A stretch of 64,000 bases of DNA from Escherichia phage Mangalyan. A model generated the notes under the pieces. That model was not told the origin of the DNA. It searched no databases and saw only the letters and a list, made by a program, of their open reading frames with translations. Position 1 is the stretch's first letter. Each line of letters begins with the position of its first letter. Positions 2,951 through 45,632 of the stretch are shown one piece after another. Made by a program: the position numbers and the translations under genes. Location of the stretch: sequence record OR449013; one strand, 5' to 3'.

Positions 2951-3010
2951 AGTGACCCTCCGTTTTAATTTCAACGGTAGTATACCTGACTGTTTTGTTA
3001 ATTTCAAGTG

Positions 3011-40391: not shown

Positions 40392-40697
40392 ATGGCTAAA
40401 TCTAAAGTTGAACTGTTCACCTCTCTTCCTTCTGACACTGCAGAGCGTGATCGCCTTCGCAAAACAATCGAAGAACTGGTAGAACTCCAACTTCAGATTA
40501 AAGATCTGAAAGATGCCATTAAGGATATCATTCTCGTTGAGAAGCAGGATCACCTGTATTCTCCTAAATTCATCAAATCTCTGGTGGCTACCGAGTTCGA
40601 TATTCGCTATGAGGCTGAAAAACGTCGAGCTAAAATCGAAGAAGAGGTTGAGCACATGTCCGAGGCAGACATTCTGTTCAAACGCTCTGTAGAATAA
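40392..40697 (+). CDS. hypothetical coiled-coil protein (101 aa)
   Basis: ATG after AAGGAGAC; heptad-like charged sequence. Confidence 0.55.
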   Translation: MAKSKVELFTSLPSDTAERDRLRKTIEELVELQLQIKDLKDAIKDIILVEKQDHLYSPKFIKSLVATEFDIRYEAEKRRAKIEEEVEHMSEADILFKRSVE

Positions 40698-41966: not shown

Positions 41967-42087
41967 AGCACCGAGCCCACACAGGTTCCTCATGCTAAAG
42001 CATGGCCTGAAGAGGCAAACGTGTATAATTCCTGTGCATTAGAACGTATAAAACCCTGTTCACACTTTCATTCCCAGAGGAGATTTT

Positions 42088-42303
42088 ATGAAGATAGAGA
42101 TATTTGGTGGAGCTGACAACACTCGTGGCCTGATTTACCTTGAATTCGATGAATCATACCTGCCAGAGGTGTTAAATATGGACTCTGTTGCTGAGGCTTT
42201 GGGAGTAAGTCCTAAAGATCTCCACTCTGGTGCTGAGATTGATGGTTGGGAGGAGACCATGAACATCGATTTCAGTGAAGTAGGGGATGAACCACTGGAC
42301 TGA
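42088..42303 (+). CDS. small acidic protein (71 aa), MKIEI-type
   Basis: ATG after CAGAGGAG; last rightward gene. Confidence 0.55.
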   Translation: MKIEIFGGADNTRGLIYLEFDESYLPEVLNMDSVAEALGVSPKDLHSGAEIDGWEETMNIDFSEVGDEPLD

Positions 42304-42430
42304 CACACAATTAGTTGCCCGGCTAAAGTGCTGGGAGCACCCATAACACATCTTTCAACTAAATTTTCTACCACCACAATCACTTACCTCCCACACATGA
42401 CTGTTTGCTTGTTTAGTGAGCAGTCATGCC

Positions 42431-42458
42431 TTGACATTCTTGCCTATCCTGATAAAAT
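42431..42458 (+). promoter_or_regulatory. candidate sigma70-like promoter at entry to ORF-free zone
   Basis: TTGACA 42431-42436, 16-bp spacer, TAAAAT 42453-42458; no ORF downstream. Confidence 0.4.
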
Positions 42459-42654
42459 TAAGTTCTTCTCTTTTCTTTTACCGAGTAATTCGGGTTTTCT
42501 GTTCTCTTCGGTTTGAAGGGGTATGGAGATACACCTGAGTGAACAGGGTGAACAACCGAACCATTGGCTATGGCATTAGCATGGCGAAGCGGACGGGTGA
42601 CGAAAGAGGGGCCGGAGGACACCAGTCACTGCCATATGATATATGGGTGATAAC

Positions 42655-43193
42655 CTGAAGAGTCTGAATAAGTGTTTAAGTACCAGTCAGAGGAAAAGGT
42701 GAATGGTAGCCGAAGGGGGAGGGGGGTTACCTGCTTCTGTAAACATGCATCTGAAATACTACTTTAGATAACCTGAACCTGCCTTTCTGACAAATATTCC
42801 CTATTAAACTTGAATTATTTATAGAAAATACCACAACACCACTTAAGTCTTTGATTTTACACACAAATCTTACAGATATTAAACCTCTCTATTTAACATA
42901 CCTGTAACATATACTATACTCCACCTGTCTGATCAATTTCCCCAACTACATCCCCATATTTTCCCTGTCTGTACTACCCCTGCCCCGCCGGGAGTCCCGT
43001 CATATCTGGCTTTCCAGCAAATATCACACCCACAAATATCATCACCTGAAGAGGGTTTCATCCCATAATACATGCCTTACCTGAAGAGCGCTTCATACAC
43101 CACATAAATTTTTTAATTGACCCCCTCCCCGCCGCCGGAGAGGTTGGCTTTTCCCACACAGACCTGGAGAGTCAGCCAGAAATATCTGAAGAG
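42655..43193. repeat. four dispersed copies of about 15-bp motif CCTGAAGAG(G/C)G(T/C)TTCA
   Basis: CTGAAGAG at about 42655, 43046, 43081, 43186. Confidence 0.7.
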
Positions 43194-43750
43194 GGTCTAG
43201 TTCTGCCCTGTCATAAGCGGTAGCGACTGGAGTGCTGCTAGGCGGACGAAATGGGAATACTTCTCATTCTTATAACAATTCTCAAATATCGAGGCAGTGA
43301 GGCAAATTAATAGGTGAGGCCGTTCACACAGTGGCACAACATTTGCAACCTATCTTGTGGGATTGAATGAGAATACCTATCATTGTGAGAACTGTTATCA
43401 TTACGGGCAATTTAACATAATACCCATTATGCGCACCACTGGCGATACATACAGGGATTGATAACATGGGTTACTGTTTACGCACATAACAATTATATTT
43501 CTTACTATTTGTGTGGGATATAGTTAGCAGCCGATAGATTAGATATTAACCTGCAGACTTCTGACCGTCCAGACGTCTAAACGCCCACACACCAAGGATT
43601 ATACATACACTCCTGAATGTAAACAGGGCCGCAAAAATGCTACCATACAAGCTTGTAAATTTTTCATGCAGCACTTGACAAAGAGGAGAAAAACTTGTCT
43701 GACATAATGTGACCTAACTGACACAACATGACACTTTTACACACCTATTA

Positions 43751-43820
43751 GTTTACACACTGGATTGTTTACATTCCTGATTGTTCACATGCTAACCATT
43801 TACATGATTGACTGTTTACA
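43751..43820. repeat. iteron-like array: five copies of GTTTACA (variants GTTCACA, ATTTACA) at 15-16 bp spacing
   Basis: copies starting about 43751, 43767, 43783, 43798, 43814. Confidence 0.75.
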
Positions 43821-43833
43821 CACCGATAATCAG

Positions 43834-44083
43834 CCATGCCATTCGTTTGCATGACAATAATTATACATGACAATAATCGCACTGATCATAATTAGCATGA
43901 CATAATATAAAAGCAGGGCAACTATTAGCAGATCTATAGTTGCCTTGCTTGTTATGTCATGATTAACTAAATACAAGGCAACTATGATCTGATTAATAGT
44001 TTGCAGACAAACTATCACGGGGGTGATGGTTACTGCTTTTATATTATGTCGCGACTCCGTCGCGCCATGCCATTCGTTTGCAT
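43834..44083. repeat. direct 19-bp repeat CCATGCCATTCGTTTGCAT (two copies) flanking inverted repeats GGCAACTAT / ATAGTTGCC
   Basis: 19-mer at 43834-43852 and 44065-44083; palindrome arms at 43917-43925 / 43936-43944; second related palindrome about 43977-44005. Confidence 0.7.
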
Positions 44084-44697
44084 AGTTGCCTTATTGTTAC
44101 AGATAAAATAATTGTATTGTTAATTATTTCTTATCTTTCTATTAGTCATCTAATGATTTCAGTTAATATAGTAACGTACAGTAAACATTAGACGACTAAA
44201 GATTTCTATGCTTATGGTAACCTAACGTGACAATTCCAGACTGTTTACGAAAAATGTTGACACCTGGGCCGATTTATGTTATGCAGTTTACACGAATAAT
44301 TATTTTATGCAGGTATTGACTATTCCGTTATTCTATGGTTGGAATAAATGCTTAGCAGGCTATAGAATGGCGAGCGTACGTAAATTCTGAGATCTGGCGG
44401 CTATAGTTATACTCGATTTTTCACGTAGAAAACGCTTTTGTAGTTATGTAAGTGTATGACTTATAAAGTTGACAAGCTATTGAATATATGCATCAGGTTA
44501 AATTTTGTGCAAATGCTGCATTACGTGCAATTTTGGAAGGAAAAACGTGTAAAAATGGCCCTGCTACCACACAATGAAAAATTATGCAATAGTTATTTTA
44601 TATGTATGTTTGTACAGTGTGTGGGATTGATGGCTCGTCAATTATTCCACTTGCCAGGTAGGGCCGTTTATGGTAGGGGGAAGAGCAGACAAAAAGA

Positions 44698-44715
44698 AAG
44701 GGGCCTAAGCCCCTT
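44698..44715 (-). terminator. rho-independent terminator for leftward transcripts
   Basis: AAGGGGC CTAA GCCCCTT; on minus strand followed by UCUUUUUGUC. Confidence 0.65.
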
Positions 44716-44733
44716 GATAATTCAGTTAAAAAA

Positions 44734-45153
44734 TTATAATGATTCGTATATTTCAAAAATCCGATTTGCCAGGTCGTTACGGTAGCGGAATTTTTCCTCG
44801 CGTTTGATCATAAGATCTTTATAGCCGTACTCTTTAAGCACTTCATTAACTTTATGGCGGCATACTTTCATATTATCCTGCGCGTCACCAATAAATCTGT
44901 TGCTATGGTGCATGGCTTTAATTTCTTCTTCCAGGACCAGGGCAACTATGCGGACCGGATCAAGCTGATAGGCGGTAACATCCATGCGGCATTGTAGACG
45001 GCTTTTAACGTCTGCCACCGGATATACTGCAACCTCTTCCCCGTCAACATTGACAATAATTAGTTTACCATCGATTTCGAATCCTTTCGCCGCCGGACCG
45101 TGACAAAAAGCGTTATCAAAGCTATATGCCGGATTATTAGATTTAATGTTCAT
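44734..45153 (-). CDS. hypothetical protein (139 aa)
   Basis: ORF followed by terminator. Confidence 0.55.
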   Translation of the reverse strand: MNIKSNNPAYSFDNAFCHGPAAKGFEIDGKLIIVNVDGEEVAVYPVADVKSRLQCRMDVTAYQLDPVRIVALVLEEEIKAMHHSNRFIGDAQDNMKVCRHKVNEVLKEYGYKDLMIKREEKFRYRNDLANRIFEIYESL

Positions 45154-45296
45154 GGTGTTTTTACCTCTTAGTTAATTTTCTTACAACTCCCCTTCAAAAA
45201 AGAATATAGCAAAACTGCCGATCCCTGTCAACCAGGGATAGCATAATTTTTATGTGATCAAGGGGCTTTATTACCCCCTGACCGTAACTTGTTGTA

Positions 45297-45632
45297 TTAT
45301 TTGTTGCTCATCCAGTTTTCCCAAGCTGCCTGATAATCTGCCTCACTGCGGCGGATCTCTTCTTGTTCTTCAAGCCGGATCTCTTCTTCCAGGTACCCCA
45401 GGATATCGGATTTTTTGGTCTGGCGTAGCATCCAGTCATCTTTTTTGCGAGTAAAGATCTTATAAGCTTTCTCGCAAACCTCTTTTTTGCTACCTTTTTG
45501 GACTTCAAGAATTCTGTAGGCCATGTACTGAACTAATTTAAGCTGATCCAGACGTTTCATGATGTTTTCCTCTTTATGCGGTTCGTTTTGATTAGTTGAT
45601 AATACAGCAGTTCGCAGATCAGTCTTTAGCAA
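45297..45632 (-). CDS. hypothetical protein (111 aa)
   Basis: ORF in leftward block. Confidence 0.5.
   Translation of the reverse strand: MLKTDLRTAVLSTNQNEPHKEENIMKRLDQLKLVQYMAYRILEVQKGSKKEVCEKAYKIFTRKKDDWMLRQTKKSDILGYLEEEIRLEEQEEIRRSEADYQAAWENWMSNK

Follow-up and report, generated by a model that had tools for sequence, protein, structure and literature searches.

Two identical direct repeats that bracket a group of palindromes in a gene-free part of a phage genome raise the question of whether such an arrangement marks a packaging or recombination site, delimits a small non-coding mobile unit, as a preliminary description had variously proposed, or has another role. In this work, we analyzed the locus in a 64-kb stretch of the genome of an rV5-like Vequintavirus of E. 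coli, the whole of which is hereafter called the window. The repeats enclose a single-copy compound quasi-palindrome of 152 bp (43899-44050), hereafter the element, which is most likely part of the non-coding DNA controlling the genome end. Our preferred and still tentative reading of its function, which we infer from the sequence, is that of a protein-recognized, hairpin-forming DNA accessory of concatemer-junction or end processing.

Position beside the terminal repeat

The terminal repeat (DTR) of the window can be placed by homology to phages with published ends. In the EdH4 and Gotham records the first 459 bp are the same as the last 459 bp and both map to 43241-43699 of the window; a repeat_region is annotated at 1-459 of the Gotham record, and the published length of the terminal repeat is 458 bp for EdH4 and HdK5 and 459 bp for Gotham. 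On this homology we infer a DTR of 459 bp for the window, whose physical left end would be at 43241 and whose inner DTR boundary would be at 43699/43700. Across relatives, the DTR is 92-97% identical to the FV3 repeat and, per 20-bp bin, 94-100% of 13 aligned genomes match the window. The left 20-mer direct repeat stands 134 bp past the edge of this packaging-generated repeat, which bears out the suspected association with genome termini, and the compound palindrome begins about 200 bp past the same boundary (Table 1).

Table 1 Features of the region between the terminal repeat and the last half-site (window coordinates)
Feature	Position	Strand	Remarks
DTR-homologous region	43241..43699	.	Homology to EdH4, Gotham, FV3 and other relatives
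(T)GACAY array, 9-11 bp spacing	43700..43745	+	4-5 copies in the window, 3-7 in relatives
TGTTTAC-type repeats, six, 15-16 bp spacing	43733..43825	+	2-8 copies in relatives
Left 20-mer GCCATGCCATTCGTTTGCAT	43833..43852	+	0-1 mismatches in all relatives examined
Variable leader	43850..43906	+	CATGACAATAAT twice (43850, 43866), CATGACATAAT (43896)
Left outer arm GACATAATATAAAAGCAG	43899..43916	+	Invariant in 18/18 haplotypes
Palindrome 1, arms AAGCAGGGCAACTAT / ATAGTTGCCTTGCTT	43911..43950	.	10-nt spacer containing GATC
Apex/linker	43951..43973	.	Most variable part of the core
Palindrome 2, CAAGGCAACTAT + ATAGTTTGC	43974..44004	.	10-nt spacer with GATC, T44000 bulged
Side hairpin AACTATCAC-GGGG-GTGATGGTT, then ACTGCTTTTATATT	44010..44031	+	Terminator-like; overlooked earlier
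Right outer arm CTGCTTTTATATTATGTC	44033..44050	+	Complementary to left arm; invariant
Mini-palindrome GCGAC-TCC-GTCGC	44051..44063	.	Between right arm and right 20-mer
Right 20-mer GCCATGCCATTCGTTTGCAT	44064..44083	+	FV3 retains one hybrid copy here
Extra GGCAACTAT half-site (ATAGTTGCCTT on plus strand)	44082..44092	-	Overlaps right 20-mer end

Two short-repeat arrays lie to the right of the DTR, and CCTGAAGAG repeats lie to its left. The (T)GACAY array begins 2 bp past the DTR boundary in every relative examined, its sequence and copy number varying from phage to phage, and the TGTTTAC-type repeats occupy the most variable part of the region. The element sits in a conserved non-coding left-end region, inboard of the DTR and of both arrays. 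The TGTTTACAC repeats were considered as DnaA boxes, given their resemblance to TTWTNCACA, and rejected: the single consensus box of the region (43735) is unpaired and missing in 6 of 10 relatives, and the density over the whole window is 0.19 per kb. A sigma-70 promoter at the DTR edge was likewise discarded, as its TTGACA (43675) and CATAAT (43703) are too far apart (22 bp) and the -10-like CATAAT is not conserved among relatives.

Around the element, about 2.4 kb are without genes, a region labeled merely "non-coding" in the rV5 genome paper, and we found no description of the compound palindrome in the literature. The flanking gene arrays are convergent, both being transcribed toward the gene-free region, and the element lies 0.7 kb and 1.7 kb past their last genes; a 62-codon minus-strand open reading frame inside the palindrome (43830-44018) was regarded as spurious. 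Searches of the neighboring proteins against Pfam and PHROGs returned no recognizable domain or function. One of them (139 aa) is common to Phapecoctavirus, where a gene-free stretch of about 1.2-1.5 kb adjoins it too, with zero sequence similarity to the window region; of the two phages read, one has this stretch near the end of its record. A second conserved protein (101 aa) has another gene context in Mydovirus KpS8. These comparisons therefore provided no alignable homologous region outside the genus.

Architecture, folding and conservation of the element

The direct repeats are indeed two identical copies, but their length is 20 nt and not the 19 bp first given; they are 231 bp apart from start to start, and no further copy was found in the 64-kb window with up to 4 mismatches allowed. 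The repeated CATGACAATAAT was also recovered, in a leader that carries AACAAGTTAAYAAT-type repeats in other phages, with or without a 48-nt GC-hairpin insertion. The region is in general a hot spot of small insertions.

The element is composed of an 18-bp closing stem, two GGCAACTAT dyads, which can pair locally or across the center, and a 9-bp side hairpin. Its outer inverted repeat, perfect over 18/18 positions and previously overlooked, encloses both palindromes; the 18-mer arm has no additional copy in the window, and its left copy opens with GACATAAT, a motif also present at the DTR boundary. The first palindrome, GGCAACTAT-N10-ATAGTTGCC, was confirmed at 43917-43944 with core half-sites at 43917-43925 and 43936-43944, and its arms extend to 15 nt (43911-43925 and 43936-43950) with one G.T pair. 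These arms are invariant and the spacer varies, with C>A at 43929 in 10 of the 18 haplotypes and T43935 deleted in 3. The second, related palindrome is present as well but is imperfect, since GGCAACTAT at 43977-43985 faces ATAGTTTGC at 43996-44004 with T44000 bulged, a base that is replaced by A in several haplotypes; its left arm is, in addition, fully complementary to 43936-43947. In the rV5 group (10 records), a 33-nt insertion at the apex folds into an extra apical stem-loop. Outside the closing stem, the mini-palindrome is invariant in the aligned relatives except for a 1-nt insertion after it in Alma, and an extra half-site, ATAGTTGCC at 44082-44090, had escaped the preliminary description; it lies beyond the deletable unit (see below) and is invariant in all relatives including FV3. 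In total, the two strands of the window contain GGCAACTAT 6 times, 4 of them within 175 bp, where a rough estimate gives about 0.5 for the whole window. The arrangement of the repeats is not due to chance. Regulation by Dam through GATC, as in P1 pac, was considered for the conserved GATC sites of the spacers and set aside, as such sites are frequent throughout the genome (5.75 per kb, observed/expected 1.1).

Folding calculations for positions 43895-44055 (161 nt, holding the 152-nt element) gave -73.5 kcal/mol against -31.7 +/- 3.5 for shuffled sequences (z = -11.9), the z-scores ranging from -8.2 with DNA parameters to -11.9 with RNA parameters, so that a potential to form a cruciform or hairpin is strongly supported by prediction. 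In 16 of 17 haplotypes the fold of the plus strand is better than that of the minus strand, and each of the four non-Watson-Crick positions in the stems, of which the window has three and a metagenomic contig one, is G.T on the plus strand. Both the G.T pairs and the strand bias could reflect a single-stranded nucleic acid, which may equally be RNA. The bulged T43935 is deleted in three phages and a fourth inserts an A opposite to it, either change perfecting the long hairpin; indels of this kind match quasi-palindrome correction and, like the fold z-scores, point indirectly to the formation of a hairpin in the DNA. The spacer differs by 1 nt in some phages (from 10 to 9 or from 10 to 11), a difference that a rigid dimeric binding site would tolerate poorly and that therefore counts against such a site.

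When the repeats were sought in relatives, they were present in 117 of 119 Vequintavirus records, with the core in one place per record and at least 95% identical in 107 of them, whereas the right flank beside it is less conserved (mostly 90-95% identical). Searches of viral and bacterial sequences, metagenome contigs, E. coli genomes and plasmids yielded no element outside the genus. Variable sites concentrate in spacers, bulges and apex: 4 of 88 symmetric positions vary, versus 18 of 64 others (Fisher p = 9e-5; 18 haplotypes). No pair of compensatory double changes was seen in the 18 haplotypes, in which the stems are nearly invariant, and for this reason a covariation test of RNA structure is uninformative. 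One-sided changes that exchange G.U and G-C are limited to three; T43945C in EPFV3 and T44013C in EI-SP-GF, the latter turning a U.G of the side hairpin into C-G, convert a wobble to a Watson-Crick pair, and the third does the reverse. These data show a constraint on sequence beyond that on structure alone. The half-site at 44082 is not needed by the hairpin, and sequence-specific recognition would explain its retention.

Loss in FV3 and possible roles of the element

FV3 alone lacks the element, through a precise deletion between the 20-mers that leaves a single hybrid copy, and keeps the terminal repeat region and the short-repeat arrays. The relatives nearest to FV3 at this locus, EPFV3 (97% identical) and YP-6 (96%), carry the element; FV3 is therefore nested among element-carrying phages and represents a loss and not an ancestral empty insertion site. 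Flanked by the 20-mers, the long palindrome makes a unit prone to such precise deletion, and the proposed link to recombination holds in the sense that one natural rearrangement has its junction exactly at the 20-mers. As regards the packaging site, the location beside the DTR boundary speaks for it, but an essential signal is doubtful because FV3 retains the repeat region without the element, unless its record contains a cloning or assembly artefact. The element is thus probably dispensable despite its strong conservation. Long palindromes between direct repeats are deletion-prone, and retention in nearly all genomes in spite of this implies selection.

If the element were a non-coding mobile unit of the MITE type, bounded by terminal inverted repeats and with the 20-mers as its target-site duplication, this would account for the perfect direct repeats around a unit that contains 18-bp inverted repeats, and for the clean "empty site" with one 20-mer in FV3. 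However, there is one copy per genome in a single genus, and none in 5,426 E. coli genomes, the sole match in a plasmid record being a mislabeled phage genome. In viral and bacterial collections the palindrome pattern is matched, by estimate, about as often as expected by chance, and the matching sequences are unrelated. The inverted arms lie 46 bp and 13 bp away from the 20-mers instead of abutting them, the empty site is secondary, as the filled sites of EPFV3 and YP-6 indicate, and 20 bp exceeds the target duplications of known transposons, to our knowledge. Mobility, which we hold to be very improbable, is essentially excluded, and the 20-mers are conserved sequence blocks and not target-site duplications.

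The dispensability in FV3 would also be expected if the element had no function of its own and were a neutral or selfish quasi-palindrome, linked to the essential terminal region, whose arms are equalized by templated intramolecular correction. The hairpin-perfecting indels look mutational rather than selected and the region accumulates small insertions, which would fit. Against it, the core surpasses its flanks in conservation between genomes, symmetric positions avoid variation (p ~1e-4), arm-to-arm correction cannot account for identity over 117 genomes, and only a single loss was seen where a palindrome flanked by 20-bp repeats is generally expected to be lost frequently. We consider this explanation quite improbable.

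A part in replication is also unlikely. The element might belong to an origin, whose short repeats bind an initiator, or serve near the genome end as a strand-specific signal for single-strand initiation (priming), whose plus-strand three-hairpin fold recruits primase or a primosome. Direct-repeat arrays and palindromes in gene-free DNA of lower G+C (0.38-0.40) fit this, as do the dispensability, a property of accessory priming sites, and the fold itself, which is compound, spans about 140 nt, contains three hairpins, favors one strand and resembles G4-type priming signals. Nevertheless, cumulative GC skew peaks at the element and has its window minimum, the usual signature of an origin, near 3000; DnaA boxes show neither enrichment nor conservation, the adjacent genes include none that looks like an initiator, and the repeats number from 2 to 8 among close relatives.

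The main rival, which we regard as possible although doubtful, is a role at the RNA level. The element would act as a compound bidirectional intrinsic terminator, stopping convergent read-through transcription before or after the concatemer junction, or it would encode a small, structured RNA about 130 nt long, read from the plus strand (~43913 to ~44045) and ended by the side hairpin and a U-rich tail, with its start directed by an invariant extended -10-like TGACATAAT (43898-43906). Both flanking gene arrays read toward the region, where the rV5 paper expected bidirectional terminators and found none. The structure is flanked by an A-tract, ATATAAAAG, and a T-tract, CTTTTATAT; the plus-strand match at 44010-44031 is terminator-like and followed by ACTGCTTTTATATT, and the annotations of the Alma and Murica records place a minus-strand terminator at palindrome 1. 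On that strand the palindrome is followed by TTTTATATTAT, and the U-tracts of both strands are interrupted and lie partly inside the outer stem. Furthermore, the putative transcripts of either strand fold at z ~-8, the wobbles are all G.U on the plus strand with two one-sided changes toward Watson-Crick pairs against one in the opposite direction, and changes in loop length and the apical insertion are tolerated. Loss in FV3 would suit an accessory RNA or a terminator, several relatives have an extra GC-hairpin with a T-run just upstream, and a strong sigma-70-like promoter (42431-42458) is directed into the gene-free region.

Several observations argue against this role. Rfam 15 gave no match with E up to 1 on either strand of 42000-45500. 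The stems are invariant in sequence and free of compensatory double substitutions, an invariance that a plain terminator does not need, and the gene arrays possess terminator-like sites of their own, at 44698-44715 (minus) and 42481-42493 (plus). Besides, the putative promoter lacks a conserved -35 region, and the half-site at 44082 and the shared GACATAAT motif are left unexplained. A literature search for transcriptomes of rV5-like phages found none.

We therefore return to DNA-level processing of the genome end, as tentatively preferred above. The invariant GGCAACTAT half-sites and the GACATAAT arms would be recognized by a phage protein, candidates being the small subunit of terminase or some other end-binding protein. 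In addition, the symmetric sequence could extrude into a hairpin or cruciform, with a preference for the plus strand. The phased GACAY array begins at the cut site, and the element might act with it in positioning or processing the concatemer junction, be it through terminase assembly or through a duplication of the terminal repeat with the help of a hairpin, of the kind proposed for T7. Its role would be accessory and not essential. On the other hand, the succession of A-tract, hairpin and T-tract, together with two independent terminator annotations, makes an RNA-level role fit equally. It is tempting to speculate on more specific versions, in which the 459-bp repeat is duplicated at every concatemer junction with the plus-strand hairpin as primer or guide and with the aid of a protein that reads GGCAACTAT and GACATAAT, or in which the element encodes the small RNA of about 130 nt; that either is correct seems rather unlikely. 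The second of these is our alternative novel reading, a phage small RNA from the first DNA beside the genome end.

According to a 2026 review, the cutting and duplication of ends in phages with short exact terminal repeats are still poorly understood. If the hairpin-duplication version were true, the element would be a junction-processing module acting in cis, the first to be defined in a large myovirus with a short DTR; if it were merely a terminator, the finding would be an ordinary one. Phages of the rV5 type are common and serve in phage typing and in therapy work, and our results provide a testable map of candidate cis-acting sites, comprising the arrays that lead back to the boundary and a compact element that is strongly conserved and naturally deletable. 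Annotators should be aware that the "non-coding box" of rV5-like genomes is structured and, as we suggest, that the FV3 record possibly carries a palindrome deletion.

Comparison with known systems

Several known systems share some of these features. MITEs and other transposons likewise have inverted repeats within a unit bracketed by direct repeats, and one "empty" allele exists here as well; unlike them, the element is single copy and confined to one genus, its arms are not terminal, its direct repeat measures 20 bp and the empty allele is derived. With bidirectional terminators it shares a stem-loop between an A-tract and a T-tract, convergent transcription units on either side, and terminators predicted on the minus strand by the record annotators and on the plus strand by the present scan. 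In contrast, the element is far larger and more complex than usual (152 nt, three helices), its stems are conserved in sequence, and the last genes carry terminator-like sites of their own.

In lambda cosB and in the pac sites of SPP1 and P1, repeated binding sites for the small terminase lie beside the cut. Short repeated sites at the cleavage position (the GACAY array of the window is 2 bp off) and a dyad or inverted arrangement are common to these and to our locus, whereas in the window the sites are putative, the GGCAACTAT dyads lie 218-390 bp away from the boundary, and the element is deletable. At the inner edge of the left terminal repeat of T5, which is about 10 kb long, lies Repeat Region 3 of the injection-stop (iss) region, which has been tied to two-step injection (Davison, bioRxiv 10.1101/866236). 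The paired DnaA boxes of T5 are missing in the window and there is zero sequence similarity, but both phages have conserved untranslated nested repeats and palindromes at the boundary of a terminal repeat, and both regions are better conserved than many nearby genes.

In T7, short repeat arrays flank the 160-bp terminal repeat. In the account of the T7-group junction summarized in PMC4281155 (Chung & Hinkle 1990; Molineux 2006), a junction-proximal palindrome or "hairpin" intermediate is proposed for the duplication of the terminal repeat. The phage of the window differs in being a myovirus of about 137 kb with host-type promoters and zero sequence similarity to this group, and its palindrome is on the left-end side, measures 152 bp, is compound, consists of repeated GGCAACTAT dyads and is seemingly dispensable. 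Even so, a short exact DTR, short-repeat arrays at its boundary and a hairpin-capable palindrome a few hundred bp away are found in both.

Anatomy of the repeats and position beside the terminal repeat

All the repeats listed in the preliminary description exist in the window, and the two direct copies stand, with a length of 20 rather than 19 bp (GCCATGCCATTCGTTTGCAT); no further copy of this 20-mer occurs in the 64-kb window with up to 4 mismatches allowed. A perfect 18-nt inverted repeat had been overlooked and, because it encloses both of the palindromes described, these are the arms of one compound quasi-palindrome of 152 bp (hereafter, the element). Counting both strands, the 64 kb contain 6 copies of the motif GGCAACTAT, where a rough estimate predicts ~0.5, and four of them lie in or next to the element; local pairing of the motif's dyads gives two hairpins and pairing across the centre gives one of ~55 bp.

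The records of the relatives EdH4, HdK5, Gotham and YN3 have their first base 59 bp before window position 43300. In EdH4 and Gotham the first 459 bp equal the last 459 bp and map to window 43241-43699, positions 1-459 of the Gotham record are annotated as a repeat region, and the published values are a terminal redundancy of 458 bp (EdH4, HdK5) and terminal repeats of 459 bp with a fixed packaging start (Gotham). Since these ends map there, we place the direct terminal repeat (DTR) of the window's phage at that segment, by homology to relatives and not from its own reads. The repeats and palindromes thus start 134 bp inside a DTR inner boundary placed by homology, which bears out the suggested link to genome termini. 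The layout from DTR to palindrome is common to all relatives examined, with varying sequences and copy numbers.

Features in and around the gene-free region
Feature	Window position	Remarks
101-aa protein	40392-40697 (+)	100% identity in most Vequintavirus records
Sigma-70-like promoter	within 42431-42493	TTGACA-16-TAAAAT, preceded by TG; near-consensus
Terminator-like hairpin	42481-42493	weak; downstream of promoter
ACCTGAAGAG / CCTGAAGAG repeats	42650, 43041, 43076, 43184	span 42650-43201; other DTR side (right genome end)
DTR (by homology)	43241-43699	459 bp
(T)GACAY repeats	43700-43825 (with next row)	3-7 copies, 9-11 bp spacing (~one helical turn), directly after DTR boundary
TGTTTAC repeats		2-8 copies, 15-16 bp spacing, after GACAY array
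Left 20-mer	43833-43852	after TGTTTAC array; then variable leader of 16-bp repeats
Element	43899-44050	last in layout; arms open with GACATAAT, as at DTR boundary
Outer arms	43899-43916, 44033-44050	perfect 18-nt inverted repeat
Palindromes 1 and 2	43911-43950, 43974-44004
GGCAACTAT copies	43917, 43936, 43977, 44082	four of six
Side hairpin	44010-44031	9 bp
Right 20-mer	44064-44083
Fold, plus strand, RNA parameters	43895-44055	-73.5 kcal/mol (shuffles -31.7 +/- 3.5), z = -11.9
Fold, minus strand, RNA parameters	43895-44055	-65.7 kcal/mol, z = -11.6
Fold, plus strand, DNA parameters	43830-44100	-57.1 kcal/mol, z = -8.2
Imperfect inverted repeats	44142-44199, 44567-44624	22-nt arms, 82% / 73% complementary, 14-nt loops; conserved non-coding DNA right of element
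139-aa protein	44734-45153 (-)	adjoins non-coding region

The GACAY and TGTTTAC arrays begin exactly at the DTR inner boundary and are the sole hypervariable part of the non-coding region, differing in sequence and copy number even between otherwise close phages. On its left side the DTR is preceded by 2-4 copies of CCTGAAGAG; relatives have 2-4 ACCTGAAGAG / CCTGAAGAG copies <=270 bp from the DTR start, and at the right end these may correspond to the GACAY array.

According to the annotation of well-annotated relatives, the gene-free stretch measures ~2.4 kb, from the end of the last plus-strand gene (42303) to the minus-strand genes (from 44734). The rV5 genome paper draws it merely as a grey 'non-coding' box, in which bidirectional terminators were expected and none found. 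The tabulated promoter, after the last plus-strand gene, is directed into this stretch and the DTR, and the 280 nt downstream of it fold just a little more stably than shuffles (z = -2.2). The 139-aa protein shows 89% identity to a protein of Phapecoctavirus (phAPEC8-like, another subfamily; L018 and L019), which likewise adjoins a gene-free stretch, of ~1.2-1.5 kb. In Mt1B1_P17 (L018) this stretch is situated near the end of the record; it contains repeats of its own and has no DNA similarity to the window's non-coding region.

Conservation and variation among relatives

Window region 43300-44700 is matched by 119 phage records at 80-99% identity, headed by Escherichia phage MaxBurger (98.4%), and every record whose taxonomy was read belongs to Vequintavirus (rV5-like myoviruses, ~137 kb). 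Of these records, 117 contain the core (43897-44063), in one copy per genome and at >=95% identity in 107 of the carriers; the adjoining right flank is found in all 119, mostly at 90-95%. Alignment of 13 genomes gave a DTR conserved at 94-100%, a variable zone at 43700-43900 and a near-invariant core. The element is real, non-random and conserved.

Variation was scored over 18 distinct haplotypes, among which the 18-bp arms and the half-sites show zero changes; the 13-nt mini-palindrome GCGACTCCGTCGC just outside the element is likewise unchanged in a longer alignment of 22 relatives. The 22 variable positions are depleted at symmetric sites (4/88 vs 18/64 elsewhere; Fisher p = 9e-5 under a local-hairpin model and 7e-5 under a long-hairpin model). 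Constraint acts on the sequence, and a neutral palindrome, to which this pattern is contrary, is quite unlikely. Compensatory double changes number zero across the 18 haplotypes, so that covariation speaks neither for nor against RNA.

Among individual changes, C>A at 43929 (10/18 haplotypes) lies in the palindrome 1 spacer and breaks one long-hairpin pair, and the bulged T44000 is replaced by A in several haplotypes. LL12, YP-6 and TP14 have lost the bulged T43935, and one metagenomic relative has gained an A that matches it on the other arm, each change perfecting the long hairpin; T43945C in EPFV3 and T44013C in EI-SP-GF turn G.U pairs into G-C. In the rV5 group a GC-rich 33-nt insert, TTAACATCCTCGAGACGAAGGCTATGCCTGAGT, sits exactly at the apex and folds as an additional apical stem-loop (10 records; e.g. 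L011:1693-1877, L013:1703-1886, L025:803-987); a relative of it lies directly after the left 20-mer in YP-6 (L021), and the window has none. Several relatives (L007, L010, L011, L013, L171) have, just upstream of the palindrome and after the left 20-mer, a 48-nt insertion of two GC hairpins and a T-run (GGTGACCTTTGGTCACC CCTTCGGG TGTTTC) that looks like an additional plus-strand terminator.

Deletion between the 20-mers and search for copies elsewhere

Both 20-mers are present in all relatives examined but FV3, which has a single one, with the left flank joined straight to AGTTGCC. As its closest relatives at the locus, EPFV3-03/2025 (right-flank identity 97%) and YP-6 (96%), carry the full element, FV3 lost the unit through precise deletion between the direct repeats, in keeping with the recombination proposed in the preliminary description. 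A long palindrome between direct repeats is expected to be lost in this way; the deletion could also have arisen in cloning or sequencing, and in both cases FV3 does not represent an ancestral empty site. At position 7 of the 20-mer, most phages have C in both copies, YP-6 and L172 have A in both, and 12A, JEP1 and EPFV3 have A in the left copy and C in the right, a pattern suggesting that the two copies occasionally exchange sequence.

Among 5,426 E. coli genomes, none matches the element. When IMG/VR, the GTDB genomes and JGI metagenomes were scanned for its pattern, it was found in Vequintavirus contigs only, the remaining matches being unrelated sequence at about the number estimated for chance. 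With no copy elsewhere and an empty site in FV3 that is a derived deletion, we rejected the small mobile unit first envisaged, and a MITE-like origin is very improbable. The one 'plasmid' match, E. coli CP057073.1, is as long (137,565 bp) as rV5-like phage genomes are and was taken as a mislabelled phage; 18 matching 'Campylobacter phage' records (MG0656xx series; both opened ones flagged UNVERIFIED, with Vequintavirus taxonomy) look mislabelled too.

Possible roles and comparison with T7 and T5

Location, anatomy, conservation and deletion are matters of observation, from which function can be proposed only conditionally. We tentatively favor a DNA-level role, in which the element would be read sequence-specifically and, being hairpin-capable, would act as an accessory module of junction or end processing, because (i) it adjoins the DTR and shares the GACATAAT motif with the DTR boundary, (ii) its sequence is invariant beyond mere conservation of pairing, and (iii) an extra invariant half-site lies outside the hairpin, at 44082. 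The 101-aa protein, named transcriptional regulator or dsDNA-binding protein in some records, has homologues in further Vequintavirinae genera and, as its sole Pfam hint, a sub-threshold GapR-like match (E = 0.04), and might be considered a candidate trans-acting factor.

The main rival, possible yet rather doubtful, is an RNA-level role, either as a compound bidirectional terminator between convergent gene arrays or as a plus-strand RNA of ~130 nt starting at the invariant extended -10-like TGACATAAT and ending at the side hairpin and a U-rich tail. The flanking A-tract and T-tract, terminator predictions at the element, its tolerance of altered loop lengths, its dispensability in FV3 and the wobble bias on the plus strand all speak for it. 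Where the stems depart from Watson-Crick pairing, the plus strand has G.T in every case, and of the two strands it gives the better fold in 16/17 haplotypes; this hints, weakly, that it is the plus strand that folds as a single strand. An origin or priming site seems improbable, given the GC-skew maximum at the element's position and the lack of DnaA boxes and of an initiator gene.

No description of the element was found in the literature searched. It belongs to a familiar kind, cis-acting non-coding phage DNA beside terminal repeats, and its interest is moderate to low unless a junction-processing or small-RNA role is demonstrated. In phage T7, arrays of short repeats adjoin the terminal repeat, a layout similar to that around the window's DTR. 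For T7, a hairpin intermediate has been proposed in terminal-repeat duplication (summarised in PMC4281155). The injection-stop region of T5, whose hallmark DnaA boxes are absent from the window's region, likewise holds conserved nested repeats and palindromes at the terminal-repeat boundary (Davison, bioRxiv 10.1101/866236).
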